64,000 bases of DNA from Escherichia coli. Its GTDB lineage: Bacteria > Pseudomonadota > Gammaproteobacteria > Enterobacterales > Enterobacteriaceae. Shown one piece after another: positions 2,872 through 35,964 of this stretch. Location of the stretch: assembly GCF_003018115.1 (NCBI RefSeq), contig NZ_CP027457.1; one strand, given 5' to 3'. Under the pieces are notes generated by a model. It did not search any database. It saw only the letters and a list, made by a program, of their open reading frames with translations, and was not told where the DNA came from. The position numbers and the translations under genes are program-made. Numbering within the stretch: the stretch's first letter is position 1; each line of letters starts with the position of its first letter.

Positions 2872-3510
2872 TTAGAGGTTCTTGATTACTTTGACTGCAC
2901 GTCCTAGGACTTCCACATCATCTACAGAACATTCAAATGAAGTGTCATCTTGGTTAACTACTATTTTGTTTCCGGGTATGCGCGCAATTTTGACGATGCT
3001 TTTAACTCCGTCCATATCGACTAACCAGAAGCCATTACTGACTTGTTTAACAGACGTATCCACTACAAAGCTATCATTAGCTGTTTTAACAAATAAAGCG
3101 TTGGATGAGTCACCATCGAGCAGGCTGCTATCAAGAAGAATTTCATCACTTGGCTGCAGTTCGCCGTTCTTCAGTTCAACACGTTTGATGCTAGGAGCGA
3201 CGATCTTAGAAAGTGGTCTTACAGTGACAGGAGGTTCATTTTTGAGATTTGTTTCTTCGTTCTCACACGCATACATATCTCCTTGACCAGTAGCCAGCCA
3301 TAGAAGGGAAACTCCTGTTTCAAGGGCACATTGGATTACCCATTCGGCAGGAAAGCTATCCCTTAAGTATCTGTTAGCCATAGTGCTTTTTGATACTTCC
3401 AGATGTTCGCAGAGCTGCTGTCGTGAGCTGAAGTTGTAAGCCTTAATAAGCCTATTAATCGCATCGCGCCCACCACTATCATTCCCCGCCTTGATTAAAC
3501 TCATAATCAA
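2872..3510 (-). CDS. cI: phage 186 CI-type immunity repressor (N-terminal HTH, C-terminal oligomerisation domain)
   Basis: 212-aa ORF divergent from apl/cII; position next to int; HTH-like SRQQLCEHLEVSKSTMANRYL. Confidence 0.75.
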   Translation of the reverse strand: MIMSLIKAGNDSGGRDAINRLIKAYNFSSRQQLCEHLEVSKSTMANRYLRDSFPAEWVIQCALETGVSLLWLATGQGDMYACENEETNLKNEPPVTVRPLSKIVAPSIKRVELKNGELQPSDEILLDSSLLDGDSSNALFVKTANDSFVVDTSVKQVSNGFWLVDMDGVKSIVKIARIPGNKIVVNQDDTSFECSVDDVEVLGRAVKVIKNL

Positions 3511-3620
3511 ACCTCTTGATGTATATAAAAAGTGATCCTAATATCCATCCATGGTTTGAAAAGCAAAACCAAACCACATAAAACAAGATAAAACGAAACC
3601 AAACTAAGAGATACTGCACT
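3511..3620. promoter_or_regulatory. lysis-lysogeny switch region with face-to-face promoters/operators between cI and apl; candidate rightward promoter TTGAAA(3556-3561)-17 bp-TAAAAC(3579-3584)
   Basis: AT-rich 110-bp divergent intergenic region between repressor and excisionase/Cox-like gene. Confidence 0.35.
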
Positions 3621-3863
3621 ATGAGTACTGATATTTCAATTCGTGTACCAAAAGAGATGGCTACGCCTGCAGAGTTCGCGGAATGGGAAGGTATCTCCCG
3701 CGGCTCCGTGTATCAAAAAATTCACCATGGTCAGCTTGCTAAATACATGGTCAAGAAAGAAAAAAACAAAGGCCGCGTAAGCCTGCGTTATTTAATGTAC
3801 AAAACCGATCAGGTCCGTGAATCCCTCGGTCATTCCAACTTCCGCGTCATTGTTGGTAAGTAA
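3621..3863 (+). CDS. apl: Apl/Cox-like excisionase and transcriptional regulator
   Basis: 80-aa ORF first in the early rightward operon, opposite cI; HTH-like EFAEWEGISRGSVYQKIHHGQL. Confidence 0.7.
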   Translation: MSTDISIRVPKEMATPAEFAEWEGISRGSVYQKIHHGQLAKYMVKKEKNKGRVSLRYLMYKTDQVRESLGHSNFRVIVGK

Positions 3864-3895
3864 GTTCAATTATGAGAACTTTCTAAGGGGGTAGC

Positions 3896-4405
3896 ATGTT
3901 TGATTATAAGATTTCCAAACACCCGCATTTTGATGAAGCCTGTAGAGCTTTTGCACTTCGTCACAATATGGCGAAGCTGGCAGAACGTGCAGGAATGAAT
4001 GTCCAGACTTTGCGAAACAAACTCAACCCAGATCAACCGCATCAGCTAAATGCGCCAGAAATCTGGCTGCTTACCGATCTGACTGAAGATTCAACGCTGA
4101 TAGATGGTTTTCTGGCACAGATTCACTGCCTGCCATGTGTACCGATTAATGAGGTAGCAAAAGAGAAACTGCCGCATTACGTCATGAGTGCAACTGCAGA
4201 GATCGGGCGTGTTGCTGCTGGTGCGGTATCTGGCGATGTAAAAACCAGTGCAGGTCGTCGTGATGCTATCAGCAGCATTAACTCTGTAACACGACTGATG
4301 GCGCTGGCTGCTGTTTCATTGCAGGCCCGTTTACAGGCTAACCCGGCGATGGCGAGTGCAGTTGATACCATGACTGGCCTTGGTGCTTCATTCGGTTTGC
4401 TGTGA
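3896..4405 (+). CDS. cII: CII-like lysogeny establishment activator (186 CII-type)
   Basis: 169-aa ORF directly after apl with RBS; HTH near N-terminus (MNVQTLRNKLN); 186-like order. Confidence 0.65.
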   Translation: MFDYKISKHPHFDEACRAFALRHNMAKLAERAGMNVQTLRNKLNPDQPHQLNAPEIWLLTDLTEDSTLIDGFLAQIHCLPCVPINEVAKEKLPHYVMSATAEIGRVAAGAVSGDVKTSAGRRDAISSINSVTRLMALAAVSLQARLQANPAMASAVDTMTGLGASFGLL

Positions 4406-5446: not shown

Positions 5447-6300
5447 GCACCATCCTGAAATGGGCGGGTAATAAAACCGCCGTTATGTCCGAACTGAAAA
5501 AATACCTTCCTGCTGGCCCGCGACTGGTTGAACCTTTCGCGGGTTCCTGTGCAGTGATGATGGAGACGGATTACCCAAGCTATCTGGTAGCGGATATTAA
5601 TCCTGATTTAATCAACCTCTATAAAAAGGTTGCTGCTGATTGTGAGGTGTTTATATCTCGCGCCAGAATTTTGTTTGAGGAAGCAAACAGTGAGCTGGCT
5701 TATTACAACATAAGGCAGGAGTTTAATTACTCAACTGAAATTACTGATTTCATGAAATCGGTATATTTCCTGTATCTCAATCGTCATGGTTACCGTGGGT
5801 TATGTCGCTATAACAAGAGCGGGCATTTCAACATTCCCTACGGTAATTATAAAAAACCGTATTTCCCTGAAAAAGAAATTCGCGCATTTGCAGAGAAAGC
5901 CCAGCGGGCAACGTTTATCTGCGCCAGCTTTGATGAAACGCTGGCGATGTTGAAGGCGGGGGATGTGGTGTATTGCGATCCGCCGTATGACGGTACGTTT
6001 TCCGGCTATCACACTGATGGCTTCACTGAGGATGACCAGTATCACCTGGCATCCGTTCTTGAACATCGATCATCTGAAGGTCATCCGGTCATTGTTTCTA
6101 ACAGTGACACATCCCTGATTCGTTCGCTGTATCGCAATTTCACTCACCACTACATCAAGGCAAAACGCAGCATCGGCGTGTCGGCTGGCGAGAGTAAATC
6201 TGCAACAGAAATCATTGCTGTTTCCGGGGCGCGCTGCTGGGTGGGATTTGATCCTTCGCGTGGCGTGGATAGTTCTGCTGTGTACGAGGTGCGTGTATGA
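5443..6300 (+). CDS. dam: DNA adenine methyltransferase (Dam-like, probable GATC N6-adenine MTase), orphan
   Basis: Motif [10 protein letters not shown] and motif IV DPPY; strong similarity pattern to E. coli Dam ([24 protein letters not shown]); ATG 5443 with GGAGGTG RBS. Confidence 0.85.
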
Positions 6301-8863: not shown

Positions 8864-9052
8864 ATGCAGGACTATTTTTTGGAGTCTTTGAAGCTCCAGC
8901 GCATTGATTTTTTTCTTAAGCTTGTAGCGGCTAGTGAGTGTAGTGATGAAGAGAAGGGGCTGGCTCTGCAGTGGGTTTCTGAATTGACTGATGAACTCAT
9001 GGCAAAAATCAGAAGCCACGAATACAACCGCTCAATGGATGTCATCAGCTGA
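8864..9052 (+). CDS. small SOS-inducible protein, possible Tum-like antirepressor
   Basis: 62-aa ORF with AGGAGG RBS directly downstream of the LexA box; 186-like position after gene A. Confidence 0.45.
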   Translation: MQDYFLESLKLQRIDFFLKLVAASECSDEEKGLALQWVSELTDELMAKIRSHEYNRSMDVIS

Positions 9053-9062
9053 GGTGACTTTT

Positions 9063-9296
9063 ATGCGCATTGAAATAATGATCGATAAAGAGCAGAAGAT
9101 TAGCCAGTCTACCCTGGACGCCCTTGAATCCGAGCTTTACCGCAATCTGCGCCCCCTGTATCCCAAAACGGTAATTCGCATTCGCAAAGGTAGCTCTAAC
9201 GGTGTGGAACTAACCGGACTGCAACTGGATGAAGAAAGAAAACAAGTGATGAAAATTATGCAGAAGGTGTGGGAGGACGACAGCTGGCTGCATTAA
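9063..9296 (+). CDS. DinI-family protein
   Basis: 77 aa from ATG 9063 (RBS GAGGTG); MRIEIMIDKEQ...WEDDSWLH resembles DinI (MRIEVTI...W..ADDW). Confidence 0.7.
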   Translation: MRIEIMIDKEQKISQSTLDALESELYRNLRPLYPKTVIRIRKGSSNGVELTGLQLDEERKQVMKIMQKVWEDDSWLH

Positions 9297-9488: not shown

Positions 9489-9824
9489 TTACGAATGATC
9501 ATTCTGTTTAGTCTTCATGAGAAAATCCCGAATCTTTGCCAAGTTTGAATTTTCGGGGATTGAATCCATGTACGGATCACGCTCAAACACTAATTGCTCA
9601 GATTCAACGAAAGCCTGCCACTCTACTGGGTCTAGCTCAAATCCCATTGCTGTCATATCACTTTCATCTTCCCCCTCGATCCAGTGGACTAAATAAAACA
9701 ATTCATCATCAGGAGAATCATCCTCACCATCAACAATATCAACATCGGTTACAGTGATACGTAGGGTGGGATCGATTTTTGAGACATAAATTCCTAACTG
9801 TGGTATAGGGGGAATATTGTTCAT
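9489..9824 (-). CDS. hypothetical highly acidic small protein (about 26 D/E in 111 aa), candidate DNA mimic, anti-restriction or immunity factor
   Basis: Strong RBS AAGGAG 6 nt before ATG (9822-9824); divergent from the DUF262 gene across the cos region; AT-rich. Confidence 0.6.
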   Translation of the reverse strand: MNNIPPIPQLGIYVSKIDPTLRITVTDVDIVDGEDDSPDDELFYLVHWIEGEDESDMTAMGFELDPVEWQAFVESEQLVFERDPYMDSIPENSNLAKIRDFLMKTKQNDHS

Positions 9825-10356: not shown

Positions 10357-12138
10357 ATGGCTGAACTATTACCGCAAACAACTTCTATACAAACTATTTA
10401 TTCATGGTTTACTGAAGGTAAGATATTTGTTAATAGACGTTATCAACGAAAATTAGTTTGGACTGCAATAGAGAAACAAAAATTAATTGAATCCATTCAA
10501 AAAAAATATCCAATTCCTGCAGTTCTTCTCGCGGAAAGGGAAAATGATCCTGGCACATATGAAATAATTGATGGCCTACAAAGATTACATGCAATAATGT
10601 CTTTCATCGAAACAGGATATGAATCACTTGATGGAAAACGTTTTAATCTGGACGCTTTTCCCACAGCGAAAAATCGAGCGGATGAAGGTAAGTTTGTTGC
10701 AGTGAAAGCTGATAATCTTTTAAGTCAGCGTGAGGTTACTCAGTTATTGGATTATTCTCTTGCAATGTCCATTATGCGTAATGCGACTGAGAACGAAATA
10801 AATGATGTTTTTGATAGAATTAATACATACGGGCATAGACTTAGTGATCAAGAAAGGCGCCAGGCTGGTATACAAAATAAATTTTCAAATATGGTTAGGG
10901 ATATTGCCTGTTCTATCAGGGGGGATGTATCTGACGACATATTGCTTTTAGAGCAAATGCCGTCTATTAGCATTGATTTGCCACTAACTAAACATGGTTA
11001 CCAAATTCAGTCGGAAGAAGTATTTTGGGTAAAACATGGGATCTTACGTTCAACAGACCTTCGTGACAGTATGGATGAGCAATGCATTGCAGATATAGCA
11101 GCTTGTATTGTTGGAGGTAAGTTAATAGATCGTTCCAAAGATGCGCTTGATCAGATTTATAATAATGAAGATGAAGAGTATAGTCGTATTAGCTCTGCTA
11201 TTAATGTTTATGGTGAAGGAAAATTTGCAGAAGAGTTTAAATTCTGCATCCAGGAAATAACAAAAGTATGTAATAGTGACGGTGAAATTAAACTCAGGGA
11301 TTTAATCTTTACTAAACGTACTACAAATGCTTTCCCAGCCATATTTGCTGTGTTATTTATTGCTTTTCATGAATTACTCATTAAAGAAAATAAGAAGATT
11401 AATAATTATAAAGGTGTAAAAGACAATCTTAATAATATAGTCACTCGACTAGATACTAAAAGATCTGCTACTGGTGGGGAAGAGAGAAGAAAGAATATTA
11501 ATTCTATCATAGGCTTGATTAAAGATAACTTTATTGATAGCGCCGATAGCAGTCATATCTATAATTCTCACAATACGGTGGATATTGAGGATATTTTACG
11601 AAGATCTGAAATAGAGCTTGCAAATTATGAACTGAAACAGGGTTTGTTGATGTTAGGCGGAGAGCGAACTATTGATGATGGCATTCATGAGAAAATATTC
11701 TCCACAATTTGTGCTATTGCTAACATCGGTAAAGGTAACAAGAACGGTGTAGTTGGTAAGTTATTGCTTGGTGTAACAGATAAACCAAGTGATACAAGTA
11801 GAGTAAAAGAGCTTGATGATATAGATGCACATGTAGTTGGTGAGAGAAGTGTTGTTGGTGTTAAAAGAGAAGCTATTAAACTCGGCATATCAATGGAAGA
11901 ATATTATAGACGTTTTTGCGATGAGTTGAAAAAATCTGCTTTGAGTGAGCCTCTTAAATCACAAGTGGTGAGTTTGATTGACTATAATGACTTTTATGGT
12001 TATGGAGTTATAGTTATTACAATTCCACTTCTAGCATCTTATTCTAGTTATGATGGGGATATTTATTATCGTGCTGGCGATAATACCGTAAAAGCAACAG
12101 TTATCGAAGCAGCAGATATTGCAACACGTTTTAAATGA
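10357..12138 (+). CDS. DUF262 (ParB/GmrS-like NTPase/nuclease-fold) N-domain fused to Schlafen/AlbA_2-like C-domain; candidate anti-phage defence protein
   Basis: 593 aa; N-terminal RRYQRKLVW and IIDGLQRLHA motifs (DUF262 signature); C-terminal ELANYELKQ...ICAIANIGKGNKNGVVGKLLLGVTD...IYYRAGDNT resembles AlbA_2/Schlafen core; no H-N-H/DUF1524 motif; AT-rich; between cos and portal gene. Confidence 0.7.
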   Translation: MAELLPQTTSIQTIYSWFTEGKIFVNRRYQRKLVWTAIEKQKLIESIQKKYPIPAVLLAERENDPGTYEIIDGLQRLHAIMSFIETGYESLDGKRFNLDAFPTAKNRADEGKFVAVKADNLLSQREVTQLLDYSLAMSIMRNATENEINDVFDRINTYGHRLSDQERRQAGIQNKFSNMVRDIACSIRGDVSDDILLLEQMPSISIDLPLTKHGYQIQSEEVFWVKHGILRSTDLRDSMDEQCIADIAACIVGGKLIDRSKDALDQIYNNEDEEYSRISSAINVYGEGKFAEEFKFCIQEITKVCNSDGEIKLRDLIFTKRTTNAFPAIFAVLFIAFHELLIKENKKINNYKGVKDNLNNIVTRLDTKRSATGGEERRKNINSIIGLIKDNFIDSADSSHIYNSHNTVDIEDILRRSEIELANYELKQGLLMLGGERTIDDGIHEKIFSTICAIANIGKGNKNGVVGKLLLGVTDKPSDTSRVKELDDIDAHVVGERSVVGVKREAIKLGISMEEYYRRFCDELKKSALSEPLKSQVVSLIDYNDFYGYGVIVITIPLLASYSSYDGDIYYRAGDNTVKATVIEAADIATRFK

Positions 12139-12141
12139 AAG

Positions 12142-12163
12142 AACGCCTGCTCAGGCAGGCGTT
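12142..12163. terminator. bidirectional hairpin terminator between DUF262 gene and Q
   Basis: AACGCCTGC-tcag-GCAGGCGTT perfect 9-bp stem. Confidence 0.55.
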
Positions 12164-12178
12164 AATTATAAACAGGAA

Positions 12179-13207
12179 CTACAAAATATATTTATTAAAT
12201 GTAATTATATTTTCATCCAGCCAACAATTAAGCGCTTGCATCAATTTTTGCAAAGGTAAAAGCTCATTCCGCACAAATACCTTACTAGCTTTCTCTACAT
12301 CCCCAAACCCCCCGACATTGCTAGGCATAATCCCCATCATTTGCGGCGGTACGCGGTGCGCCGCCATCATGTCGTCCCGGCTCACGTTCTTGATATTCAG
12401 AAACTCATCCTTCGCCGCGACTTCTGACAGAGGAATGATCTGAAGCCCATCCTTTTTGCCGTTAGGCGAGTACATAAACAGGTTGCGGAAGTTACCCGGT
12501 CCTTTGGCGCTTTTCATTGCGTTGCGGAGGTTGTTCACATCCTCCTGGTTTTGCGCGGCATCGGTCATGTACATGATGAAGCCTGCATGACTGCCGTTAA
12601 TGTAATACTTCCGGCGGAACAGCGTGGCGGACTCGTTGAGCAGGGCTGACGGAATGGCAGAAAGATAACCGGGCAGGCCGTAGATCTCCTGGTTGATATC
12701 CGGTTCCATCAGGTGAAAAATGCTGCCTTTCGTGAACTGATACGGTTGCGTTGTCATGCCGTATTGCACAAACCAGTAGGTATCCAGGTCTAATCCACGT
12801 CGGGTGTATTTTGCCAGGGCAGGCTCAAGGGCGATAACTTCACCGAATCGGTTCGTGCGTTTCTCCAGGTAGGCGTTACCAAATACCAGATAGTCCTGCA
12901 CAAAACGCGAAAAAGCCTGCTGGCTGAGCAGCGGATGAGGGATATAGGTACTGGTCAGAATGTTGCACTTTACTGCAATCGGGGAACTGTGATGCACGGC
13001 GGCGCGGAAGGTGCGCGCCAGTCCGTCAAAGCTGACGGGCGGCTCATACCAGCGGTCCATCTGTACGCATTCCACATAGTCCAGCAGTTCACGGCGGTCC
13101 AGAACAGGAACGGGATCGCCGAAGCTGAATGCTTCGGCTGTAGTTTGACTTTTAAGCTGGATCTGTTTCGTCGCCGCAGCTCGGTTCTTCTTACTCTTTC
13201 CCATCAA
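12179..13207 (-). CDS. Q: portal protein (P2 gpQ-like)
   Basis: 342 aa, P2 Q size and position, translationally coupled to P. Confidence 0.85.
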   Translation of the reverse strand: MMGKSKKNRAAATKQIQLKSQTTAEAFSFGDPVPVLDRRELLDYVECVQMDRWYEPPVSFDGLARTFRAAVHHSSPIAVKCNILTSTYIPHPLLSQQAFSRFVQDYLVFGNAYLEKRTNRFGEVIALEPALAKYTRRGLDLDTYWFVQYGMTTQPYQFTKGSIFHLMEPDINQEIYGLPGYLSAIPSALLNESATLFRRKYYINGSHAGFIMYMTDAAQNQEDVNNLRNAMKSAKGPGNFRNLFMYSPNGKKDGLQIIPLSEVAAKDEFLNIKNVSRDDMMAAHRVPPQMMGIMPSNVGGFGDVEKASKVFVRNELLPLQKLMQALNCWLDENIITFNKYIL

Positions 13208-14970
13208 AAAATCTCCACAATATTGCTGGTATTGGCGGATTCGCCCTGCAGCGGTTCGTTAAACAGTGCGTGCATCGTTGCCCATGCCAGATCGGCGTGG
13301 CTGGCTTCTTCGCTGCGGCTGGCTTCATAGGTCGGGCGGTTGCCACTGGCTGTGGTGGCGCGACGGATTGCCATAAATGACTGCGCAATGTCGGTATGTC
13401 CGGCGTCAAACTCCAGACGGCGGTGGCTGATAATGTCGTAGGCCTTGAGTACCAGGGCGTTTTTAACGTTGGGGTTGTAGACAAACTCCCGGACGGCAGG
13501 AAAGAACGCTTTCACGTTCTCGTAAACCCCGTGACCAACGCCGGTTGAGTCGATGCCGATGTAGGTCACGTTGTACTGCTCGGTCAGTTTTTTGATTGCG
13601 TCAGCCTGGGCGCGGAAGTCCATCCCGCGCCACTGGTGACGCTCAAGAATGCGAAACTTGCCGCCCGGCACGGTTGGCGGTGCCACCACCACGCACCCGG
13701 CGCTGTCACCGTTCTGCGTGCCTTTCGCCGGGTCGTATCCGATCCAGACTTCGCGCCAGCCAAACGGGCGCAGGGCCAGTGCATGAAAGTCGGTCCAGAC
13801 TTCCCAACTGTCCACCATGCACGCCTGCAGCTCGCTGAGCGGAAACACGGACGCGAGATCGTCCACAAACTCGCACATCAGTAGGTTCTGGTATTCGTCC
13901 GGGCTGTACTCCATGCGCAACTGATCGAGGTCGAACAGGTTACAGCCGCCGCGCACCGCATCTTCCACAGTGACTATCTGGCGGTACTGTCCGTCAGGGC
14001 AGAGCAGGCCGCGCGCAAGATTGCTGTGGGTCAGGTCAATATCCACCTTGTCCGCTTTGGCGCGGCCCCGGTTAAACAGCGCACCGGACCAGAACGGATA
14101 GGCACTGTGGGTCAGGCTGGACGGCGTGGAAAAGTAGGTTTGTCGCCATTTCTTGTGAATGGCCATCCCGGAGGCAACTTTGCGCAGTTCCTGGAATTTC
14201 GGTATCCAGAAATATTCATCAAGGTACAGGTTGCCGTGGTAGCTCTGCGCCGTACGGGCGTTGGTGCCGAGAAAGTACAATGCTGCGCCATTAGGTAGCA
14301 CCATAGGATCGCCTTTCAGCTCCACCTCAACTTCTTTGGCAAAGTCGATGATGTACTGCTTAAAGACGTGCGCCTGTGCCTTACTGGCAGAAAGGAAAAT
14401 CTGGTTACGTCCGGTAAGCAGGGCGTCAATCAGGGCTTCACGGGCAAAGTAAAAGGTCGCGCCGATCTGGCGTGACTTCAGCAGGTTGCGGATGCGGTTG
14501 GTTTTTCCTGCTTCCCACCAGTGGCGCTGGTAGTTGAACATGGAGGAATAAAAGATTTCTTCCAGCTTCTCAATCTGTTCATCGGTGAAAACGTTCTTTT
14601 CCGGCTGACGGCGCGGGCCTTTGTTGCGGTTGGCGACGTTAGGGTTTAAGTCGGCTTCGTTGCCGCCATTGTTAAACTTGCCGATCCGCGCATGGCGCTC
14701 CGACTGGCGCGCCAGCAGGTCAATCTCTTTGAAATCTTTCCCTTCTTTGTGCTCCTTCATAATGAGCTGGCAGTAGCGTGCGGCGGTGGTGAGCTGCATC
14801 TGATCCAGCGGCCCATAGTCACCCCACTTGTCGCGTTTTTTCCAGCTGTGAACGGTTGCAACTTTCTCGCCCAGCATTTCAGCAATGCGGGCTACGCGGT
14901 ATCCCTGAAAGTACAGCAGCATGGCCTGCCGACGGGGATCGAGATCTGCGGGTGTCAGTGTGGTGTTCAT
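13204..14970 (-). CDS. P: terminase large (ATPase) subunit (P2 gpP-like)
   Basis: 588 aa; size and synteny with P2 gpP. Confidence 0.85.
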   Translation of the reverse strand: MNTTLTPADLDPRRQAMLLYFQGYRVARIAEMLGEKVATVHSWKKRDKWGDYGPLDQMQLTTAARYCQLIMKEHKEGKDFKEIDLLARQSERHARIGKFNNGGNEADLNPNVANRNKGPRRQPEKNVFTDEQIEKLEEIFYSSMFNYQRHWWEAGKTNRIRNLLKSRQIGATFYFAREALIDALLTGRNQIFLSASKAQAHVFKQYIIDFAKEVEVELKGDPMVLPNGAALYFLGTNARTAQSYHGNLYLDEYFWIPKFQELRKVASGMAIHKKWRQTYFSTPSSLTHSAYPFWSGALFNRGRAKADKVDIDLTHSNLARGLLCPDGQYRQIVTVEDAVRGGCNLFDLDQLRMEYSPDEYQNLLMCEFVDDLASVFPLSELQACMVDSWEVWTDFHALALRPFGWREVWIGYDPAKGTQNGDSAGCVVVAPPTVPGGKFRILERHQWRGMDFRAQADAIKKLTEQYNVTYIGIDSTGVGHGVYENVKAFFPAVREFVYNPNVKNALVLKAYDIISHRRLEFDAGHTDIAQSFMAIRRATTASGNRPTYEASRSEEASHADLAWATMHALFNEPLQGESANTSNIVEIF

Positions 14971-15016
14971 GGCACAAACCTACAGCCTTGAATGAAGGCT
15001 TTCCCCGCCTGCGGTT

Positions 15017-15034
15017 TGTGTGGTTGTCGGTACA
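15017..15034 (+). promoter_or_regulatory. Ogr-dependent late promoter dyad TGT-N12-ACA (pO-like)
   Basis: TGTGTGGTTGTCGGTACA centred about 85 bp upstream of O start. Confidence 0.6.
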
Positions 15035-15112
15035 AATACCGCGCATTGTTTCACTGCCCCCATCACCGCAACCATAAGGCTCCAGTAAGTTTTTTCTAAC
15101 GGAGCACGGCTC

Positions 15113-15946
15113 ATGACAGTGAAAGCAAAGCGTTTTCGCATCGGGGTGGAAGGTGCCACTACCGACGGACGCGAAATCCAGCGTGAATGGCTGGAACAGA
15201 TGGCAGCCAGCTACAACCCGGCGGTGTATACCGCGCTGATTAACCTTGAGCATATCAAGTCTTATCTGCCGGACAGCACCTTTAACCGCTACGGCAAGGT
15301 GACGGCGCTGTTTGCTGAAGAAATCACGGAAGGTCCGCTGGCTGGCAAGATGGCGCTGTATGCCGACGTTGAGCCAACGGAATCCCTGGTGGAACTGGTG
15401 AAAAAAGGCCAGAAATTATTCACCTCTATGGAAGTCAGCCCGAAGTTCGCTGATACGGGCAAAGCCTACCTGGTTGGCCTGGCTGCCACTGATGATCCCG
15501 CCAGTCTGGGTACGGAAATGCTGACATTCAGCGCCAGTGCAGCCCATAACCCGCTGGCAAACCGCAAGCAGAATCCCGCCAATCTCTTTACCGCTGCAGA
15601 GGAAACGGTGATCGAACTGGAAGAAATCCAGGATGACAAACCGTCCCTGTTTGCCCGCGTCACGGCGCTGTTCACCAAAAAAGAGCAGTCAGACGATGCC
15701 CGGTTCTCTGATGTGCATAAAGCCGTGGAGCTGGTCGCCACTGAGCAGCAGAACCTGAGCGCACGCACCGAAAAATCCCTGTCTGAGCAGGAAGAACGCC
15801 TGTCTGAGCTGGAGACTGCTCTGCAGGAGCAGCAAACCGCCTTTAACGAACTGGTGAATAAGCTGAGCCATGAAGACAGCCGCCAGGACTACCGCAAGCG
15901 TGCAACAGGCGGTAACGCCCCCGCTGACACTCTGACCAATTGCTGA
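15113..15946 (+). CDS. O: capsid scaffolding protein (P2 gpO-like)
   Basis: 277 aa, coiled-coil rich C-terminus, precedes major capsid gene. Confidence 0.8.
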   Translation: MTVKAKRFRIGVEGATTDGREIQREWLEQMAASYNPAVYTALINLEHIKSYLPDSTFNRYGKVTALFAEEITEGPLAGKMALYADVEPTESLVELVKKGQKLFTSMEVSPKFADTGKAYLVGLAATDDPASLGTEMLTFSASAAHNPLANRKQNPANLFTAAEETVIELEEIQDDKPSLFARVTALFTKKEQSDDARFSDVHKAVELVATEQQNLSARTEKSLSEQEERLSELETALQEQQTAFNELVNKLSHEDSRQDYRKRATGGNAPADTLTNC

Positions 15947-17024: not shown

Positions 17025-17675
17025 ATGAGCCTGAGTCCCGCACGGCAGCATCGCCTGCGCGTTCAGGCTGAACAGGCCGCCCGCGAGGGCGGCAGCGTTC
17101 GCCACGCGTCGGGCTATGACCTGATGCTGCTGCAACTGGCGGAAGACCGCCGCCGTCTCAAGGGCGTTCAGTCCACGGTGAAAAAAGCGGAAATCAAGGT
17201 GGAGCTGCTGCCGAAATATGCCGCCTGGGCGGAGGGCGTCCTGGCTGCCGGAGGCGCTCAACAGGATGACGTGCTGATGTACGTGATGCTGTGGCGCATT
17301 GATGCCGGAGATTATGCCGGGGCGCTGGAGATCGGGCGTCATGCCCTGCGTCATGGCTGGGTGATGCCGCTGGGTAACCGCAACGTGCAGACCGTGCTGG
17401 CAGAGGAAATGGCAGACGCGGCGCAGAGCGCAATGCTTGCCGCCACCGGCTTTGATGCCGATCTGTTGCTGCAGACGCTGGAGCTGACAGACGGTCTGGA
17501 TATGCCGGACCAGTCACGGGCGCGTCTGCATAAAGCGATTGGCGCTGTCCTGAGTGAAAGCAACCCGGCTTCCGCCCTTAATCATCTCAACCATGCGTTA
17601 CAGCTCGATCCCCGCTGTGGCGTGAAAAAAGACAAACAGCAGCTGGAGCGCAGACTGCGCAATGACAGCCGCTGA
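17025..17675 (+). CDS. M: terminase endonuclease (small) subunit (P2 gpM-like)
   Basis: 216 aa, synteny. Confidence 0.8.
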   Translation: MSLSPARQHRLRVQAEQAAREGGSVRHASGYDLMLLQLAEDRRRLKGVQSTVKKAEIKVELLPKYAAWAEGVLAAGGAQQDDVLMYVMLWRIDAGDYAGALEIGRHALRHGWVMPLGNRNVQTVLAEEMADAAQSAMLAATGFDADLLLQTLELTDGLDMPDQSRARLHKAIGAVLSESNPASALNHLNHALQLDPRCGVKKDKQQLERRLRNDSR

Positions 17676-20087: not shown

Positions 20088-20481
20088 AGCGGTGCCTTAT
20101 GTCCGCAATAACCCGGACAAACTGCATCTGTTTGTGGATAACGGTTCGCTGGTTGCCACGGGGGCCAGCTCCATGTCGTGGGAGTACCGTTACACACTGA
20201 ACGCGGTGATTGAGGATTTCAGCGGCGACCAGAATCTGCTGATGGCCCCGGTTTTGCTGTGGCTGAGGGATAACCAGCCCGATGCCATCAATAACCCGGC
20301 GTTACGGGAAAAGCTATTCACCTTTGAGGTGGATATTCTGCGCAACGATGTCTGTGATATCAGCCTGAACCTGCAACTGACGGAACGTGTGCTGGTCAGC
20401 ACTGACGGCAGTGTGTCGAGCGTTGAAGCTATAGCGGAACCTGATGCACCTGAAGAAATGTGGACGGTGAAACGTGGCTGA
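20050..20481 (+). CDS. R: tail completion protein (P2 gpR-like)
   Basis: GTG 20050 with AGGAG RBS; synteny. Confidence 0.75.
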   Translation: MNKPQSLRHALNKAVPYVRNNPDKLHLFVDNGSLVATGASSMSWEYRYTLNAVIEDFSGDQNLLMAPVLLWLRDNQPDAINNPALREKLFTFEVDILRNDVCDISLNLQLTERVLVSTDGSVSSVEAIAEPDAPEEMWTVKRG

Positions 20482-20920
20482 ACTGCAGAAGGTGGACGAC
20501 TGGCTGAGTGCCTTGCTGGCGAATCTGGAACCAGCCTCGAGAAGCCGCATGATGCGCCAGCTGGCGCAGGAACTTCGCCGGACACAGCAGCAGAATATCA
20601 GGATGCAGCGCAACCCTGACGGCAGCGGCTATGAACCGCGACGGGTAACAGCACGCAGTAAAAAAGGCCGTATCAAACGTCAGATGTTTGCAAAGCTGCG
20701 CACCACAAAATACCTGAAAACTGCCGCCAGCACCGACTCTGCCAGCGTGCAGTTTGAAGGCAAGGTGCAGCGCATTGCCCGCGTTCACCATTACGGCCTG
20801 CGAGATCGCGTCAGTCGTAAGGGACCGGAGGTGCGTTACGCAGAGCGTCGCCTTCTGGGTGTAAATGATGATGTTGAGGCAATGACCCGCGACATGATTC
20901 TGCAATGGCTGGCGGGGTGA
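20474..20920 (+). CDS. S: tail completion protein (P2 gpS-like)
   Basis: 148 aa; synteny. Confidence 0.75.
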   Translation: MAELQKVDDWLSALLANLEPASRSRMMRQLAQELRRTQQQNIRMQRNPDGSGYEPRRVTARSKKGRIKRQMFAKLRTTKYLKTAASTDSASVQFEGKVQRIARVHHYGLRDRVSRKGPEVRYAERRLLGVNDDVEAMTRDMILQWLAG

Positions 20921-20924
20921 TCTT

Positions 20925-20942
20925 TGTATCAGCACTGATACA
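20925..20942 (+). promoter_or_regulatory. Ogr-dependent late promoter dyad TGT-N12-ACA (pV-like)
   Basis: TGTATCAGCACTGATACA (also a palindrome) about 55 bp upstream of V. Confidence 0.6.
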
Positions 20943-20988
20943 AGTTGCAGCACTGCCGCCTTTCTTCCCCTGATGGCAACCTTTCCCT

Positions 20989-21567
20989 ATGAACGCACAA
21001 TTAACCGAAATCATGCGCCTTATCACCAACCTGATCCGCACAGGGGTAGTCATCGAAGTGGACAGGGAAAACTGGCTTTGCCGGGTGAAAACGGGCGACC
21101 TTGAAACCAACTGGATTAACTGGCTGACGCTGCGCGCGGGTAATGCCCGGACATGGTGGCGACCATCGGAAGGTGAGCAGGTGGTGCTACTGAGTCTGGG
21201 CGGCAATCTGGAAACAGCCTTTGCGCTGCCCGCCATCTATTCGAATCAGTTCGCGCCACCGTCGACGTCGGCAGACGCCTGCGTGACAGAACATCCTGAC
21301 GGTGGCTGGTTTGAATACGAACCTGCCACCGGGCGTTGGTATGTAAGGGGCATCAAATCAATGGTCATTGAGGCCGCTGACAACATCACCATGAAAACCA
21401 GTGAGTTTGTACTGGAGGCTGACCACACGCGCATTAACAGCGAAGTGGTGATCAATGGTGGCGTTACCCAGGGCGGCGGAGTGATGAGTTCTAACGGGAT
21501 TGTGGTTGATGCACATCAGCATACTGGCGTCCTGAAAGGCGGCGACACAACCGGAGGCCCGGTATGA
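20989..21567 (+). CDS. V: baseplate spike/assembly protein (P2 gpV-like)
   Basis: 192 aa; synteny V-W-J-I. Confidence 0.8.
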   Translation: MNAQLTEIMRLITNLIRTGVVIEVDRENWLCRVKTGDLETNWINWLTLRAGNARTWWRPSEGEQVVLLSLGGNLETAFALPAIYSNQFAPPSTSADACVTEHPDGGWFEYEPATGRWYVRGIKSMVIEAADNITMKTSEFVLEADHTRINSEVVINGGVTQGGGVMSSNGIVVDAHQHTGVLKGGDTTGGPV

Positions 21568-24835: not shown

Positions 24836-24855
24836 TTTTATTCAGGGTGATTTAT

Positions 24856-25299
24856 ATGAACGAATATGTTTATAGCGCAAGGCATAATGCTTTTTTCCCT
24901 GTGGATATGATTGATAAATATAAATCAGAGGGATGGGATTTATCAGACGCTAAGGAAGTAAATCAAAATATTATCAGTGAGTTTATGGCTGAACCGCCAC
25001 AAGGAAAAATCCGTATTGCCGGAGATGATGGGCTGCCTGCGTGGGCAGATATTCCTCCACCCACGCATGAAGAGCTTATTGAAATTACTGAATCAGAAAG
25101 ACAGCTACTAATTAACCAGGCCAACGAATACATGAACAGTAAGCAATGGCCCGGTAAAGCCGCTATTGGTCGTCTGAAAGGTGAGGAACTGGCGCAATAT
25201 AATTTGTGGCTGGATTATCTGGACGCACTGGAGCTGATCGATACTTCCGGTGCGCCAGATATTGAATGGCCTACGCCTCCGGCAGTTCAGGCCAGATGA
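24856..25299 (+). CDS. tail fibre assembly protein (Tfa, gpG/U-like)
   Basis: Follows the fibre gene in current orientation. Confidence 0.75.
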   Translation: MNEYVYSARHNAFFPVDMIDKYKSEGWDLSDAKEVNQNIISEFMAEPPQGKIRIAGDDGLPAWADIPPPTHEELIEITESERQLLINQANEYMNSKQWPGKAAIGRLKGEELAQYNLWLDYLDALELIDTSGAPDIEWPTPPAVQAR

Positions 25300-25873
25300 C
25301 ATCCGGCGCTGTGCTGGTATCTGTTGCCGTCACCGCGTCAATGTAATCCAGCACAGCGTTAAGGCGGGTTGTTTCTGCCTGCGTCAGCTTCCGTCCGGCC
25401 TGTAATTTCAGTTGAATCAGACTGATGGAGGCCATTGCAGTATCAATCAGCGACTGGCGCTGTGCTTCTGCTGCATCTACTGCTGCGCCGTGCTGTGCCT
25501 TGGTATCTGTCACCCATTTCTCACCATTCCATTCATCGTATGGCGTTAACGGGGCGATAGTGGTTGTATTTTCAGGATAATCACCCGGAGCTGTGATTTC
25601 TTTCGATTCTCCTGTTTCGATGCTATAGACGATTTCACCGCGATGATCTGGCACATATTCCCATGAATTTAAATTCACAGAACGACAGATTGCATAACCA
25701 ACCTTATGTATGCCTGGTGCATCAAGACAGGAACATGCCGGAATACCGACACCAACAGCAAGATATTCAGTTGACGTGGAAATATATTCCCGTGTTTCAC
25801 CATCGTAGTTATAAACGGTAACATCCCCTGCCTTTGTTGCAATAAGGTCACTATTTAATATTGCTTTATGCAT
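25271..25873 (-). CDS. alternative tail fibre assembly protein (Tfa')
   Basis: 200 aa on opposite strand within invertible segment; C-terminal ...DTSTAPDVIWPELPEA parallels Tfa ...DTSGAPDIEWPTPPA. Confidence 0.75.
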   Translation of the reverse strand: MHKAILNSDLIATKAGDVTVYNYDGETREYISTSTEYLAVGVGIPACSCLDAPGIHKVGYAICRSVNLNSWEYVPDHRGEIVYSIETGESKEITAPGDYPENTTTIAPLTPYDEWNGEKWVTDTKAQHGAAVDAAEAQRQSLIDTAMASISLIQLKLQAGRKLTQAETTRLNAVLDYIDAVTATDTSTAPDVIWPELPEA

Positions 25874-26383: not shown

Positions 26384-26438
26384 TGCAGAGATAATGGCTA
26401 ACTGGCATCATCCCCGGTTTTTATTCAGGGGATTGATC

Positions 26439-27005
26439 ATGCTTATTGGCTATGTACGCGTGTCAACAAATGACCAGAACACCGATTTGCAACGTAATGC
26501 ACTGAACTGCGCGGGATGTGAGCGGATTTTTGAGGACAAAATCAGTGGCACTAAGTCCGACAGACCGGGGCTTAAAAAACTGCTCAGGACACTATCGGCA
26601 GGTGACACACTGGTTGTCTGGAAGCTGGACAGGTTGGGGCGCAGTATGCAGCATCTTGTTACGCTGATAGAAGAGTTGCGCCAGCGTGGCGTGAATTTCC
26701 GAAGCCTGACTGACAGTATTGATACCAGTACCCCAATGGGCCGTTTCTTTTTTCATGTCATGGGTGCCCTGGCTGAAATGGAACGCGAACTGATAGTTGA
26801 ACGTACCAGGGCAGGGCTGGCTGCAGCTCGTGCCAAAGGCAGAGTAGGTGGGCGTCGTCCTAAGTTGACCACCGAACAGTGGGCACAGATTGGACGTTTA
26901 CTCGAGGCCGGAGAATCAAGACAGCGTATTGCACTGATTTTTGATGTGGGCGTTTCTACCATTTATAGAAAATTTCCGGTGAATGAGAGCAATGAATCGC
27001 CCTGA
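26439..27005 (+). CDS. serine DNA invertase (Gin/Hin/Cin/Pin family)
   Basis: MLIGYVRVSTNDQNTDLQRNAL (catalytic Ser in VRVST) and C-terminal HTH; 188 aa. Confidence 0.9.
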   Translation: MLIGYVRVSTNDQNTDLQRNALNCAGCERIFEDKISGTKSDRPGLKKLLRTLSAGDTLVVWKLDRLGRSMQHLVTLIEELRQRGVNFRSLTDSIDTSTPMGRFFFHVMGALAEMERELIVERTRAGLAAARAKGRVGGRRPKLTTEQWAQIGRLLEAGESRQRIALIFDVGVSTIYRKFPVNESNESP

Positions 27006-27053: not shown

Positions 27054-27071
27054 TGTGTGAATAACGACACA
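27054..27071 (+). promoter_or_regulatory. Ogr-dependent late promoter dyad TGT-N12-ACA (pF-like)
   Basis: TGTGTGAATAACGACACA about 85 bp upstream of FI. Confidence 0.6.
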
Positions 27072-27147
27072 ACTGCGCTTAGCTGTTTGTCAGGCACAAT
27101 CACTTCAACATAGGGCGAAGCCTAATCCAATCAGGAGGTTCGCCACT

Positions 27148-28320
27148 ATGGCTCAGGATTACCACCACGGGGTGCGCGTTGTTGAAGTCAACGAAGGCAC
27201 CCGATCTATTACCACGGTGAGCACCGCCATCGTGGGTATGGTCTGCACGGGCGATGATGCCGATGCAAAAATGTTTCCTCTTAATAAACCCGTGCTGATC
27301 ACTGATGTGCTGACTGCCAGCGGTAAAGCGGGTGAGTCAGGTACTCTGGCCCGTTCGCTGGATGCCATCGCTGACCAGGCAAAACCCGTGACCATTGTTG
27401 TGCGTGTGCCGCAGGGTGAAACGGAAGACGAAACCACGACCAATATCATCGGCGCAGTGACTGCTGAAGGTAAAAAAACAGGTATGAAAGCCCTGTTATC
27501 TGCCCAGTCACAGCTCGGCGTTAAACCGCGCATTCTCGGCGTGCCAGGCCACGACACCAAGGCGGTAGCTACTGAGTTGCTGAGCGTGGCGCAAAGCCTG
27601 CGTGGATTTGCTTACCTGTCAGCGTATGGCTGCAAGACAGTGCAGGAGGCGATCACTTACCGCGAAAACTTCAGCCAGCGCGAAGGGATGCTGATCTGGC
27701 CTGACTTTACTGGTTGGGACACGGTGCTGAATGCCGAAGCAACGGCATATGCCGCCGCCCGTGCGCTTGGTCTGCGCGCCAAAATTGACGAGCAGACCGG
27801 ATGGCACAAAAGCCTGTCCAACGTGGGCGTGAACGGTGTCACCGGAATTTCTGCAGATGTGTTCTGGGATCTGCAGGACCCGGCAACCGATGCAGGTCTG
27901 CTGAACCAGAACGACGTCACCACGCTTGTGCGTAAAGACGGTTTCCGCTTCTGGGGTTCCCGCTGCCTGAGTGATGACCCGCTCTTTGCCTTCGAAAACT
28001 ACACCCGCACGGCGCAGGTGCTGATGGACACGATGGCAGAAGCACACATGTGGGCGGTGGATAAACCGCTTAACCCGTCGCTGGCCCGCGACATTATCGA
28101 AGGTATCCGCGCCAAAATGCGCAGCCTGGTCAGTCAGGGCTATCTCATTGGTGGTGATTGCTGGCTGGATGAGTCGGTGAACGACAAAGACACGCTGAAA
28201 GCCGGAAAACTCACCATCGACTACGACTACACGCCAGTGCCGCCACTTGAAAACCTGATGCTGCGTCAGCGCATCACCGATCAGTACCTGGTGAATTTCG
28301 CCAGCCAGGTCAGCGCGTAA
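27148..28320 (+). CDS. FI: tail sheath protein (P2 gpFI-like)
   Basis: 390 aa; strong RBS AGGAGG; synteny. Confidence 0.85.
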
Positions 28321-32888: not shown

Positions 32889-33985
32889 ATTTCAGCTCTG
32901 AACTGCTTAACAAAGGCAACAAAACTCCCGCATTCAGCATCAGCATTGAGGGCAGGGATATCACCACTGTGCTGGATAACCGCCTGATGAGTTTGACGCT
33001 GACGGATAACCGGGGCTTTGAAGCGGACCAGCTTGATCTGGAGTTGGATGACGCTGACGGAAAAATCGTGCTGCCGCGCCGTGGTGCGGTCATTACGCTG
33101 GCGCTGGGCTGGAAGGGGCAGCCGCTTTTCCCGAAAGGGGCATTCACAGTGGACGAGATTGAACACACTGGCGCACCGGACCGCCTGACTATCCGGGCGC
33201 GAAGTGCTGATTTTCGGGAAACGCTGAATACCCGCCGTGAAAAATCGTGGCATAAGACCACCGTCGGGGAAGTGGTGAAGGAAATAGCCGCGCGGCACAA
33301 GCTGAAGATGGCACTGGGTAAAGACCTGTCGGATAAACCCGTGGAGCATATAGACCAGACTAATGAGAGTGACGGCAGTTTTCTGATGCGGCTGGCGCGA
33401 CAGTACGGTGCCATCGCGTCGGTGAAAAATGGCAATCTGTTATTCATCCGGCAGGGGCAGGGCAAAAGCGCCACTGGTAAACCTCTGCCAGTGATCACTA
33501 TCACACGCAAGGACGGCGACAGTCACCGATTTACCCTGGCAGATCGCGGAGCCTACACGGGCGTAATTGCCAGCTGGTTACATACCCGCGAACCTGCGAA
33601 GAAAGAAAGCACCACGGTGAAGCGTAAGCGCAGAACTAAGAAGCAGAAGAAAGAGCCAGAAGCGAAGCAGGGCGATTACCTGGTGGGTACGGATGAAAAC
33701 GTGCTGGTACTTAATCGCACTTATGCCAACCGGAGCAACGCCGAACGAGCGGCGAAAATGCAGTGGGAACGCCTGCAACGCGGCGTTGCGTCATTTTCGC
33801 TACAACTGGCAGAAGGGCGGGCAGATCTCTACACGGAAATGCCTGTGAAGGTCAGCGGTTTTAAACAGCCGATAGATAATGCGGAATGGACCATTACGAC
33901 TCTGACACATACCGTCAGCCCGGATAACGGTTTTACAACCAGTATTGAACTCGAAGTGAAGATTGATGATCTTGAAATGGAATAA
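32885..33985 (+). CDS. D: tail protein / late gene D (P2 gpD-like)
   Basis: 366 aa; synteny; GTG start. Confidence 0.8.
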   Translation: MNFSSELLNKGNKTPAFSISIEGRDITTVLDNRLMSLTLTDNRGFEADQLDLELDDADGKIVLPRRGAVITLALGWKGQPLFPKGAFTVDEIEHTGAPDRLTIRARSADFRETLNTRREKSWHKTTVGEVVKEIAARHKLKMALGKDLSDKPVEHIDQTNESDGSFLMRLARQYGAIASVKNGNLLFIRQGQGKSATGKPLPVITITRKDGDSHRFTLADRGAYTGVIASWLHTREPAKKESTTVKRKRRTKKQKKEPEAKQGDYLVGTDENVLVLNRTYANRSNAERAAKMQWERLQRGVASFSLQLAEGRADLYTEMPVKVSGFKQPIDNAEWTITTLTHTVSPDNGFTTSIELEVKIDDLEME

Positions 33986-34053: not shown

Positions 34054-34272
34054 ATGATGAATTGTCCAAAGTGTGGTCATGCGGCACACACAAGGAGCAG
34101 TTTTCAAGTAACTGAAAGCACCAAAGAGCGTTACTGCCAGTGCCAAAATATTAACTGCGGGAGCACTTTTGTTACTCATGAAACAGTGGTCCGGTTTATT
34201 GTGACACCCGCACTGATTGCTACTGCTCCTCCACATCCATTGCCAGGTGGTCAGGGGCATATGAATTTTTGA
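34054..34272 (+). CDS. ogr: Ogr/Delta-family zinc-finger late transcription activator
   Basis: MMNCPKCGHAAHTRSS...ERYCQCQNINCGSTF...HPLPGG closely parallels P2 Ogr (CPLCQHAAH...YHQCQNVNCSATF...HPLPSG). Confidence 0.85.
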   Translation: MMNCPKCGHAAHTRSSFQVTESTKERYCQCQNINCGSTFVTHETVVRFIVTPALIATAPPHPLPGGQGHMNF

Positions 34273-34279
34273 GAAAGAG

Positions 34280-34300
34280 AACCTGCTACGGCAGGTTTTT
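34280..34300. terminator. bidirectional Rho-independent terminator
   Basis: AACCTGC-tacg-GCAGGTT followed by TTTT; serves ogr (+) and the convergent WYL-BRCT gene (-). Confidence 0.65.
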
Positions 34301-34781
34301 ATTCATCTGGGATCTCACCCGTTTCAAGAAAATGTATAAAGCCAGGCTCATCTATGATGATTGTGCCTTTCATCCTGGCTGCCGATACTTTTGATGGGCC
34401 TGCATTGTAACCGCAACAGAGCATCTGAAGGCTTTGGGTTACAGAGGTTCTTACCGTTAATCCTTGTTCATTCGCCTTATCAACCAATCTTTCTTTATCT
34501 GCTTTCTTAAATCCGGTGAAACACACATCGAATGTATTTTTTTTCGGACCAGACTGCTTAGTGAGATGTGAGTAGCTTTCGGGGAGGAATGACGCGCATT
34601 CCTGAATGGCTTGTTCTGGTGAATCGTACTGTTTAAGAATGCGGTCTTTTCGGAAGGTTTTTATTCGATCGGTGTTCTTACAAATGCCCTGTATATGATT
34701 TTCGCTATAACTGATGCTCTGTATAGAGTGAACACCGATACGACCATTTGCATTGATGTAAACAAAGTGAAGTTCTTCCAT
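34299..34781 (-). CDS. small WYL-domain plus BRCT-domain protein, cargo between ogr and attR
   Basis: 160 aa; N-terminal FVYINANGRIGVHSI...GICKNTDRIKTFRKDRI (WYL-like, ends in the FRxDRI signature); C-terminal DVCFTGFKKADKERLVDKANEQGLTVRTSVTQSLQMLCCGYNAGPSKVSAARMKGTIIIDEPGF (BRCT-like); RBS AGAGG before ATG at 34779-34781. Confidence 0.6.
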   Translation of the reverse strand: MEELHFVYINANGRIGVHSIQSISYSENHIQGICKNTDRIKTFRKDRILKQYDSPEQAIQECASFLPESYSHLTKQSGPKKNTFDVCFTGFKKADKERLVDKANEQGLTVRTSVTQSLQMLCCGYNAGPSKVSAARMKGTIIIDEPGFIHFLETGEIPDE

Positions 34782-34904: not shown

Positions 34905-35267
34905 TGGTGGAGCTGGCGGGAGTTGAACCCGCGTCCGAAATTCCTACATCCTCGGTACTACATGCTTAGTCAGTCTTTACATTCGCTTGCCAGCTGCGGA
35001 CGGACACGCCACTAACAAACTAGCCTGATTAAGTTTTAACGCTTCAACCCCTGGCAGGGCTTCCACGCGATCTCTTTTGGGTTTGACCTCTCTTGATCCC
35101 CGTCCTAAGAGCGGAGGCTAGGGAGAGAGGGCTCTAAGCAGGTTATTAAGCTGCTAAAGCGTAGTTTTCGTCGTTTGCGACTATTTTTTGCGGCTTTTTA
35201 CGAGGCCAACCGCCCCTCGGCATGCACCTTGGGTTTCGCAAATCCCGTCGAATCCAGAATCAGCCCC
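34905..35267 (-). ncRNA. ssrA: tmRNA (SsrA), complete; 3' 45 nt form attR
   Basis: Reverse complement matches the E. coli tmRNA from GGGGCTGATTCTGGATTCGACGGG to ...GGTTCAACTCCCGCCAGCTCCACCA, including the tag-encoding region. Confidence 0.95.
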
Positions 35268-35481: not shown

Positions 35482-35964
35482 TTAACGGTGGGCGTTTTTC
35501 ATGATACGCGCTTTATCCACCTGCCATTCGCGCTCTTTGATATCTGAACGTTTATCGTGCTGTTTCTTACCTTTGGCGACGCCGATTTTCACTTTGCACC
35601 AGGCATTTTTCCAGTACAGGGAGAGCGCCACTACGGTATAGCCTTCTCGATTGACGCGACCGTACAATGAGTCCAGTTCGCGCTGGTTGAGAAGTAACTT
35701 GCGGGTACGGGTAGGGTCGCACACCACATGCGTGGAGGCCACGGCCATTGGCGTGATGTTAGCGCCAAACAGAAATGCCTCTCCGTCACGCAGAAGGACG
35801 TAGCTGTCGCTGATATTGGCTTTTCCTGCGCGCAGGGATTTAACTTCCCAGCCTTGCAGGGCAAGTCCCGCTTCGAACTCTTCTTCGATAAAGTATTCGT
35901 GACGGGCGCGCTTGTTAAGCGCGATGGTCGCTGAACCAGGTTTATGTGCTTTTTTCTTCGTCAT
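35482..35964 (-). CDS. smpB: SsrA-binding protein SmpB
   Basis: 160 aa, directly upstream of ssrA on same strand; sequence as E. coli SmpB. Confidence 0.95.

Follow-up and report, generated by a model that had tools for sequence, protein, structure and literature searches.

The window, by which we mean the whole 64,000-nt stretch of DNA analysed here, carries a P2-like (Peduoviridae) prophage of the Fels-2/Elveevirus type at ssrA of Escherichia coli. The late region of the prophage is ~96% identical to that of Klebsiella phage 4LV2017, and its P–O junction is 99.4–99.6% identical to those of Escherichia phages 500465-1 and Cartapus. The flanking host DNA comprises E. coli smpB, ratA and recN at 99.8% identity, with ssrA, the tmRNA gene (34905–35267, minus strand), adjoining the prophage and smpB (35482–35964) in the host flank. 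From colinearity with 4LV2017, the integrase gene and attL would lie at or beyond the left window edge. A 348-aa open reading frame (ORF) at 793–1839 has no Pfam match and has its counterpart in a hypothetical gene of 4LV2017. CI and CII mark the lysogeny module as 186-type. A DinI-family ORF (8991–9296) resembles the Tum/DinI-like genes of 186, PSP3 and Fels-2 and may act as an SOS-linked antirepressor.

The late genes follow the order found in P2, 186, Fels-2 and 4LV2017. The leftward late operon begins with P, the large terminase gene (13204–14970, minus strand; Pfam Terminase_5, Terminase_6N and Terminase_6C), and its second gene is the portal gene Q (12179–13207, minus strand), also identified with Pfam. 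The rightward head/lysis operon opens with the capsid scaffold gene O (15113–15946, plus strand; Pfam Phage_GPO, E 2.9e-113) and ends with S (20474–20920, plus strand), which Pfam assigns to virion morphogenesis and tail completion. V, encoding the baseplate spike (20989–21567, plus strand; Pfam Phage_base_V and Apex), is the first gene of the baseplate/fibre operon, and FI, encoding the tail sheath (27148–28320, plus strand; Pfam Phage_sheath_1 and Phage_sheath_1C), is the first gene of the F operon, which extends from FI to D.

Directly downstream of D, on the plus strand, lies a late activator gene of the ogr/B family. The original prediction had placed an Ogr gene at 34054–34272, and this assignment was confirmed by a Pfam Ogr_Delta match (E 1.5e-20) to an ORF with its ATG at 34054. 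The 72-aa product contains a Cys4 zinc finger (C4-C7-C30-C35) in the arrangement C-X2-C-X22-C-X4-C, and C4, C7, C30 and C35 are invariant in an alignment with Ogr, B and Pag. Its identity amounts to 54% with P2 Ogr, 63% with 186 B, and 78–79% with the Fels-2 and ST13phi12.1 homologues. CI-operator-like words common to the immunity region (3500–3900) and the ogr upstream region were limited to two 8-mers, which are uninformative.

Several accessory genes accompany this core. The variable slot that separates Q from the replication genes holds two overlapping cargo ORFs (together 10357–12443): the first, of 593 aa, has a GmrSD_N (DUF262) restriction-endonuclease domain, and the second, of 102 aa, has no Pfam match. 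This cargo is probably an anti-phage defence. The equivalent slot of 4LV2017 holds a retron-type effector and a polymerase. A resolvase-family DNA invertase gene (26394–27005; Pfam Resolvase and HTH_7) stands beside two opposed tail-fibre-assembly genes (24847–25299, plus strand, and 25271–25873, minus strand), and the segment 24847–27005 looks like an invertible host-range segment of the Gin/Cin/Hin type, placed between the fibre gene and PF; a comparable invertible segment is annotated in Fels-2 and SEN8. Between the ogr terminator (34280–34297) and the 3′ end of ssrA (34905), a 160-aa minus-strand ORF without a Pfam match (34299–34781) could represent cargo of the prophage at its att end or what remains of another ssrA-integrated element.

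Three dyads precede the late operons

Three perfect TGT-N12-ACA dyads were found upstream of late genes. Dyad 1 (15017–15034, TGTGTGGTTGTCGGTACA) lies upstream of O, dyad 2 (20925–20942, TGTATCAGCACTGATACA) upstream of V, where it is the predicted PV activator site, and dyad 3 (27054–27071, TGTGTGAATAACGACACA) upstream of FI, where it is the predicted PF activator site. According to the ORF map and the Pfam assignments, the dyads head the P/Q, O..S, V..G and FI..D operons. The distance from the dyad centre to the ATG is 87.5 nt for O, 55.5 nt for V and 85.5 nt for FI.

The same three 18-mers, at exactly these positions, had been put forward as late promoter dyads in the original prediction. 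The genes that it placed downstream, O, V and FI, were identified with Pfam at 15113, 20989 and 27148, and the 55–90 bp by which it separated the dyads from the late operon starts fits the centre-to-ATG distances given above. We refine this point in one respect: the relevant distance appears to be the ~55 nt from the dyad centre to the predicted transcription start and not that to the ATG, the two being predicted to coincide for V and probably also for P.

By itself, TGT-N12-ACA is no commoner in the window than expected, with 14 copies against 17.0 ± 4.0 in dinucleotide-preserving shuffles. The 11 remaining copies lie in coding or host DNA and look random. Because the motif is not over-represented window-wide, the significance of the three dyads depends on their position and conservation. 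With respect to position, they occupy the only three intergenic gaps before late operons (142, 68 and 142 bp; 352 bp in total), in which 0.06 matches are expected. Taking the background density from the 11 other window matches, we calculated a joint probability of ~4e-6 for at least one match per gap.

Conservation of the sites and a sharper site model

The dyads were compared with the corresponding regions of nine reference genomes (P2, 186, PSP3, Fels-2, SEN8, 4LV2017, ST437-OXA245phi4.1, ST13-OXA48phi12.1 and Yersinia 42.18) and of 80 viral contigs retrieved via the V protein. All of these contigs are close relatives (96–99% identity in V), so the diversity of the sites owes most to mosaic upstream regions and to the nine reference genomes. 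A perfect dyad occurs in the same place upstream of O, V and FI in six of the nine reference genomes and in all viral contigs covering each region; the counterparts in P2, 186 and PSP3 carry one mismatch, or none was detected. Among the relatives, the dyad centre lies 82.5–94.5 nt from the ATG of O, 54.5–57.5 nt from that of V and 78.5–85.5 nt from that of FI. Some relatives have a different gene inserted upstream, so that the dyad lies in unrelated surroundings, for example ahead of V in SEN8 and ST437phi4.1, and still keeps its position. The sites are thus conserved at equivalent positions across several Peduoviridae genera, and we observed their sequences, positions and conservation, like the presence of the activator gene, directly.

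Within the sites, the inner 12 nt vary widely: we collected 51 distinct sites, a count whose members share phylogeny and are not independent of one another. The V class comprises 18 distinct versions (as 28-mers) among the relatives, several of them non-palindromic. Flanking bases on which the sites had not been selected are nevertheless conserved, TGT being preceded by T in 50/51 sites and ACA followed by A in 43/51, and the 51 distinct sites yield the consensus TTGTRYSA-N4-YNRYACAA. Scored with a weight matrix, the three window dyads reach 22–27 bits (24.2, 24.5 and 26.9 bits for dyads 1, 2 and 3, respectively) against at most 13.6 bits for everything else. The runner-up position in the window scores 12.3 bits, and the maximum in 20 window shuffles is 15.4 bits. 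The separation persists when each class is scored with matrices from the other two promoter classes only and with the window's own sequences removed. The weight matrix revealed no additional high-scoring site in the 64-kb window.

Promoter geometry

We aligned the sequences on the dyad and defined a −10-like hexamer by A at position 2 and T at position 6. In nearly all relatives such a hexamer begins 35 nt past the dyad, or 36 nt in the case of O, which places the hexamers 43.5–44.5 nt from the dyad centres, equal to the offset in P2. For PP, the window has the predicted −10 hexamer TAGGTT (14977–14982, minus strand), which would put +1 at the A of the P ATG (14970). The predicted PO hexamer is AACCAT (15070–15075, plus strand), with a predicted +1 at ~15081–15084 and a ~30-nt leader containing the Shine-Dalgarno sequence GGAG. 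PV would use CAACCT (20977–20982, plus strand) and start at 20989, the A of the V ATG, giving a leaderless message, and PF would use CAACAT (27106–27111, plus strand) and start at 27118, giving a 30-nt leader with the Shine-Dalgarno sequence AGGAGG. A PP hexamer of this A2/T6 form was found in 29/29 distinct relatives, and TAGGTT occupies nt 35–40 past the dyad like TAGCCT of P2; a PO hexamer of this form stands at offset 36 in 29/30 relatives and a PF hexamer at offset 35 in 35/36. None of the −10 hexamers is strong, and the PO start can be placed only to within a few nucleotides.

The mapped starts of P2 provide the reference for this geometry. The P2 GenBank record gives the P start as 3016 and the O start as 3127, both 55.5 nt from the site centre at 3071.5, the V start as 10308, where the V CDS itself begins, and the F start as 17626–17628. 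Measured from the dyad centres, the mapped P2 starts lie at 55.5–58.5 nt, corresponding to nt 47–49 past the dyad, the P start at 3016 being nt 47. A consensus scan predicted no sigma-70 −35/−10 promoter on the relevant strands of the three regions, as expected for activator-dependent promoters.

One site between the divergent P and O operons

The original prediction had listed no clear fourth dyad for the leftward P/Q operon, and we likewise found a single high-scoring site in the 142-bp P–O gap. Because the P2 and 186 GenBank records annotate one activator site per divergent pair, the P/Q operon, by analogy, would need no dyad of its own, dyad 1 being common to the divergent PP and PO promoters. 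The P2 record carries a single ‘activator binding site; pO, pP promoters’, the 186 record gives one B-protein site for ‘activation of pV and p12’, and the Smp131 genome paper also assigns PP′ and PO′ to one palindrome (PMC3931495). Dyad 1 of the window is placed just as these annotated sites are, and −10-like hexamers flank it near-symmetrically, beginning 35 nt (P) and 36 nt (O) past it. The hexamer towards P reads TATGTT in SEN8, ST437phi4.1 and ST13phi12.1, at the same offset as TAGCCT in P2.

Two other candidate positions were rejected. TGTGGTGTTCATGGCACA (14959–14976), considered as a fourth dyad, overlaps the P start codon and scores 10.7 bits, below the shuffle maximum of 15.4 bits; it is lost in SEN8 and ST437phi4.1 and hence is not conserved. 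TGCGTCATTTTCGCTACA (33787–33804) falls within D, 250 bp ahead of ogr; it reaches 12.3 bits and has no −10 hexamer at the required offset.

PP might instead use an unrecognised activator site of its own, or an Ogr-independent promoter, leaving dyad 1 to PO alone. Under the P2 geometry, a dyad centred 55.5 nt from the P ATG forces a leaderless transcript, which is unusual for E. coli, and the distant phages phiCTX and RSA1, with dyad-to-P distances of 36 and 50 nt, offer no simple fit to that geometry; both points lend this arrangement some appeal. We consider it improbable, given that the 142-bp gap contains neither a second site (the best other candidate, at 14958, being the unconserved 10.7-bit sequence over the start codon) nor a predicted sigma-70 promoter, and that TAGGTT/TATGTT stands at the exact offset of the P2 hexamer TAGCCT, whose start is mapped. 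Moreover, the P-side distance is constant at 55.5 nt in four genera, whereas the O-side distance ranges from 85.5 to 94.5 nt.

Other readings of the dyads

The dyads, and dyad 3 in particular, could also be taken for sites of the cAMP receptor protein (CRP), such that host catabolite control replaces or supplements Ogr. Dyad 3 does contain TGTGAATAACGACACA (27056–27071, TGTGA-N6-ACACA), which agrees with the core TGTGA-N6-TCACA at 9/10 positions and is among only four such matches in 64 kb. Dyads 1 and 2, however, match the CRP core at only 7/10 and 6/10 positions, and relatives keep the N12 register while losing the CRP-like N10 register, as in TGTATGAATAACGATACA and TGTGCCATTTTTCATACA. CRP control is thus very unlikely in our judgement, with a small chance of an accessory CRP input at PF, and the CRP-like match in dyad 3 is most likely a by-product of its TGTGTG...ACACA repeats.

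We give still less credence to the palindromes as RNA or DNA hairpins, with dyad 2, for instance, terminating the O operon after S, in place of protein-binding sites. The idea draws on dyad 2 itself, a near-perfect 8+8 palindrome located 5 nt past the S stop codon, but no T-run follows the dyads and none of them was called in a terminator scan. Dyads 1 and 3 make poor hairpins, relatives carry non-palindromic inner sequences at the dyad 2 position (e.g., TGTATGAGAGACAGAACA and TGTATCAAGTTCCAGACA) in which TGT and ACA alone are invariant, and no stem-preserving compensatory changes were seen across the relatives.

The least credible reading, that the dyads are chance copies of a low-information pattern (6 specified bases) in intergenic DNA, agrees with the window-wide count (14 against ~17) and the random look of the 11 other copies, but is effectively refuted by the comparative data, as the position is kept in every relative except P2, 186 and PSP3 despite unrelated inner sequence and flanks, the outer T and A are conserved though unselected, and the spacing to the −10-like hexamer is fixed, in addition to the joint probability of ~4e-6 for one match per late intergenic gap.

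Proposed late control and its relation to known phages

We conclude, with a probability of about 0.9, that the three dyads are the upstream activator sites of P2-like late promoters and that these three sites serve PP, PO, PV and PF. The P2 late-promoter architecture put forward in the original prediction is supported by the gene context, the activator gene, the sequence and spacing of the dyads, the missing −35 elements, the promoter geometry and the conservation of the sites. The dyad system follows the textbook P2/186 late-promoter design in a previously unannotated prophage, and every defining feature of that design that can be tested on sequence was found.

Activator binding, promoter activation, contact with the alpha subunit and the precise starts can be modelled on what is known of P2, 186 and P4. 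After induction, the 72-aa Cys4 protein of the Ogr/B/Pag/delta family would be made from 34054–34272 and would bind each TGT-N12-ACA dyad, centred ~55 nt upstream of the transcription start. The bound activator would then recruit sigma-70 RNA polymerase, through the C-terminal domain of the alpha subunit, to promoters with a weak −10 and no −35 element. Dyad 1, midway between two divergent core promoters, would activate transcription leftward into P/Q as well as rightward into the O operon. The PV start, and in the window lineage probably the PP start, would fall on the A of the start codon and produce leaderless mRNAs, and PO and PF would produce ~30-nt leaders with strong Shine-Dalgarno sequences. 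P4 delta and 186 B reportedly footprint on such dyads. For P2, inverted repeats centred near −55 are bound by Ogr, which stimulates transcription through a required contact with the alpha subunit of RNA polymerase (PMC3152322).

The closest model for this arrangement in terms of mapped promoters is P2 (PP, PO, PV and PF; Ogr), which has the same four operons in the same order and a dyad centre ~55 nt from the start, as predicted for the window (PMC3931495, PMC3152322). The likeness extends to the weak −10 and missing −35 elements, the one site between the divergent PP and PO, the leaderless V (predicted in the window), and an activator gene placed after D, beside the attachment site. The two also differ. 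The window has perfect, extended dyads (TTGTRY...RYACAA), in contrast to the imperfect TGT-N12-CCA or CAA of P2, whose sites show that an exact TGT-N12-ACA is no strict requirement. At only 54% identity to Ogr, the window activator is closer to 186 B, the immunity is of the 186 type (CI/CII) and not of the P2 C/Cox type, and an invertase gene lies directly upstream of PF in the window prophage. The P mRNA of P2 has a 23-nt leader with a Shine-Dalgarno sequence, which P of the window apparently does not.

Phage 186 (p12, pV, p32 and pJ; protein B) resembles the window prophage in having a single B site for the divergent p12/pV pair and one for pJ, in its CI/CII-type lysogeny module, and in B itself, the closest well-studied homologue of the activator (63% identity). 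It differs in that its sites carry one mismatch (TGT-N12-CCA) and that its P homologue keeps the 23-nt leader, with 78.5 nt from the dyad centre to the ATG. Upstream of the V homologue, 186 and PSP3 (9590–9730 and 9590–9735, respectively) have no full dyad, only the left half-site TTGTGTGA. The V-class site thus appears degenerate in the classical phages and perfect in the window lineage. The PV site of P2 (10240–10260) can be read as TGT-N11-ACA or as TGT-N12-CAA.

Fels-2, SopEPhi and SEN8 (Felsduovirus) and 4LV2017 (Elveevirus) are close relatives in this comparison, with late DNA 92–99% identical, identical dyad positions and the same 55.5-nt distance from the dyad centre to the P ATG. Their inner dyad sequences differ from those of the window, and their database records lack promoter annotation. 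The delta-activated promoters Psid and PLL of the satellite P4 are said to be controlled by the same Ogr_Delta family from a dyad near −55. No P4-like element is present in the window.

The main value of these results lies in annotation. They add four late promoters with predicted starts to a prophage lineage that is common in E. coli, Klebsiella and Salmonella and whose database records carry no regulatory features, and they correct a probable mis-called terminase start in the reference record of 4LV2017. They also yield a sharper site model, TTGTRY-N8-RYACAA with a −10 hexamer 35 nt downstream, which may be used for finding Ogr-family regulons and P4-like satellites. The understanding of P2-type late control is unchanged.

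The P/Q transcript and its predicted start

The distance from the dyad centre to the P ATG is exactly 55.5 nt in the window, 4LV2017, SEN8, Fels-2, ST437phi4.1 and ST13phi12.1, where the O-side distance is 85.5–94.5 nt. The fixed P side spans four genera (Elveevirus, Felsduovirus, Gegevirus and Dagavirus). P2, 186 and PSP3 have 78.5 nt on the P side, leaving a 23-nt leader with a GAGG Shine-Dalgarno sequence, and Yersinia 42.18 has 103.5 nt. Defining the Shine-Dalgarno core as GGAG, GAGG or AGGA at −18 to −4, we found it in all distinct upstream sequences of O (29/29) and FI (34/34) and in none of those of P (0/28) or V (0/34). The start codon of P and V is always ATG among the relatives.

Because the predicted PP start is the A of the ATG and no Shine-Dalgarno sequence precedes it, we lean slightly towards a leaderless P/Q mRNA in the Fels-2/Elveevirus-type lineage, in which PP would start on the A of the P ATG and the 23-nt leader would be missing. 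If this holds, P/Q and V, half of the late operons, would be translated with no Shine-Dalgarno sequence, one 18-bp dyad would govern two divergent transcripts of which one lacks a leader and the other has one, and the terminase/portal mRNA would be a second natural leaderless late transcript in enterobacterial phages, alongside the classical P2 V mRNA. P2 is named as a source of natural leaderless mRNA in a passage of PMC4633059 that cites Christie and Calendar 1985; a literature search on leaderless P2 gene V mRNA gave no direct match, the link being through PMC4633059 only.

This geometry is tied to the position of the P start codon. Judged by its domain structure, M1 at 14970 is the true start of P, because the Terminase_5 domain begins at residue 11. 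M1 is also the first start codon of the P ORF, and the residues before M17 are conserved as protein (TPADLDPRRQA). The 4LV2017 record (13949–15667) begins gpP at the equivalent of Met17, giving 572 aa compared with 588 aa from Met1. This annotation is probably 16 codons short, the start having probably been mis-called because no Shine-Dalgarno sequence precedes Met1.

The P–O comparison was extended to distant P2-like phages whose retrieved sequence covered this region, which set aside ENT90 and phiO18P (5-kb stretches lying outside it). The P–O gaps of phiCTX and RSA1 both contain a single N13 dyad, 36 and 50 nt, respectively, from the annotated P start; these two phages neither support nor refute the 55.5-nt geometry. 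In Ralstonia phage RSA1, the gap (5786–5922) contains one TGTTGT-N13-ACAACA dyad, and TAGCGT-N6 precedes the P ATG. The −10-then-ATG arrangement of RSA1 is that of the window, but its dyad centre stands 50 nt, not 55.5 nt, from the ATG; a leaderless P may also occur, on a different geometry, in distant P2-like phages.
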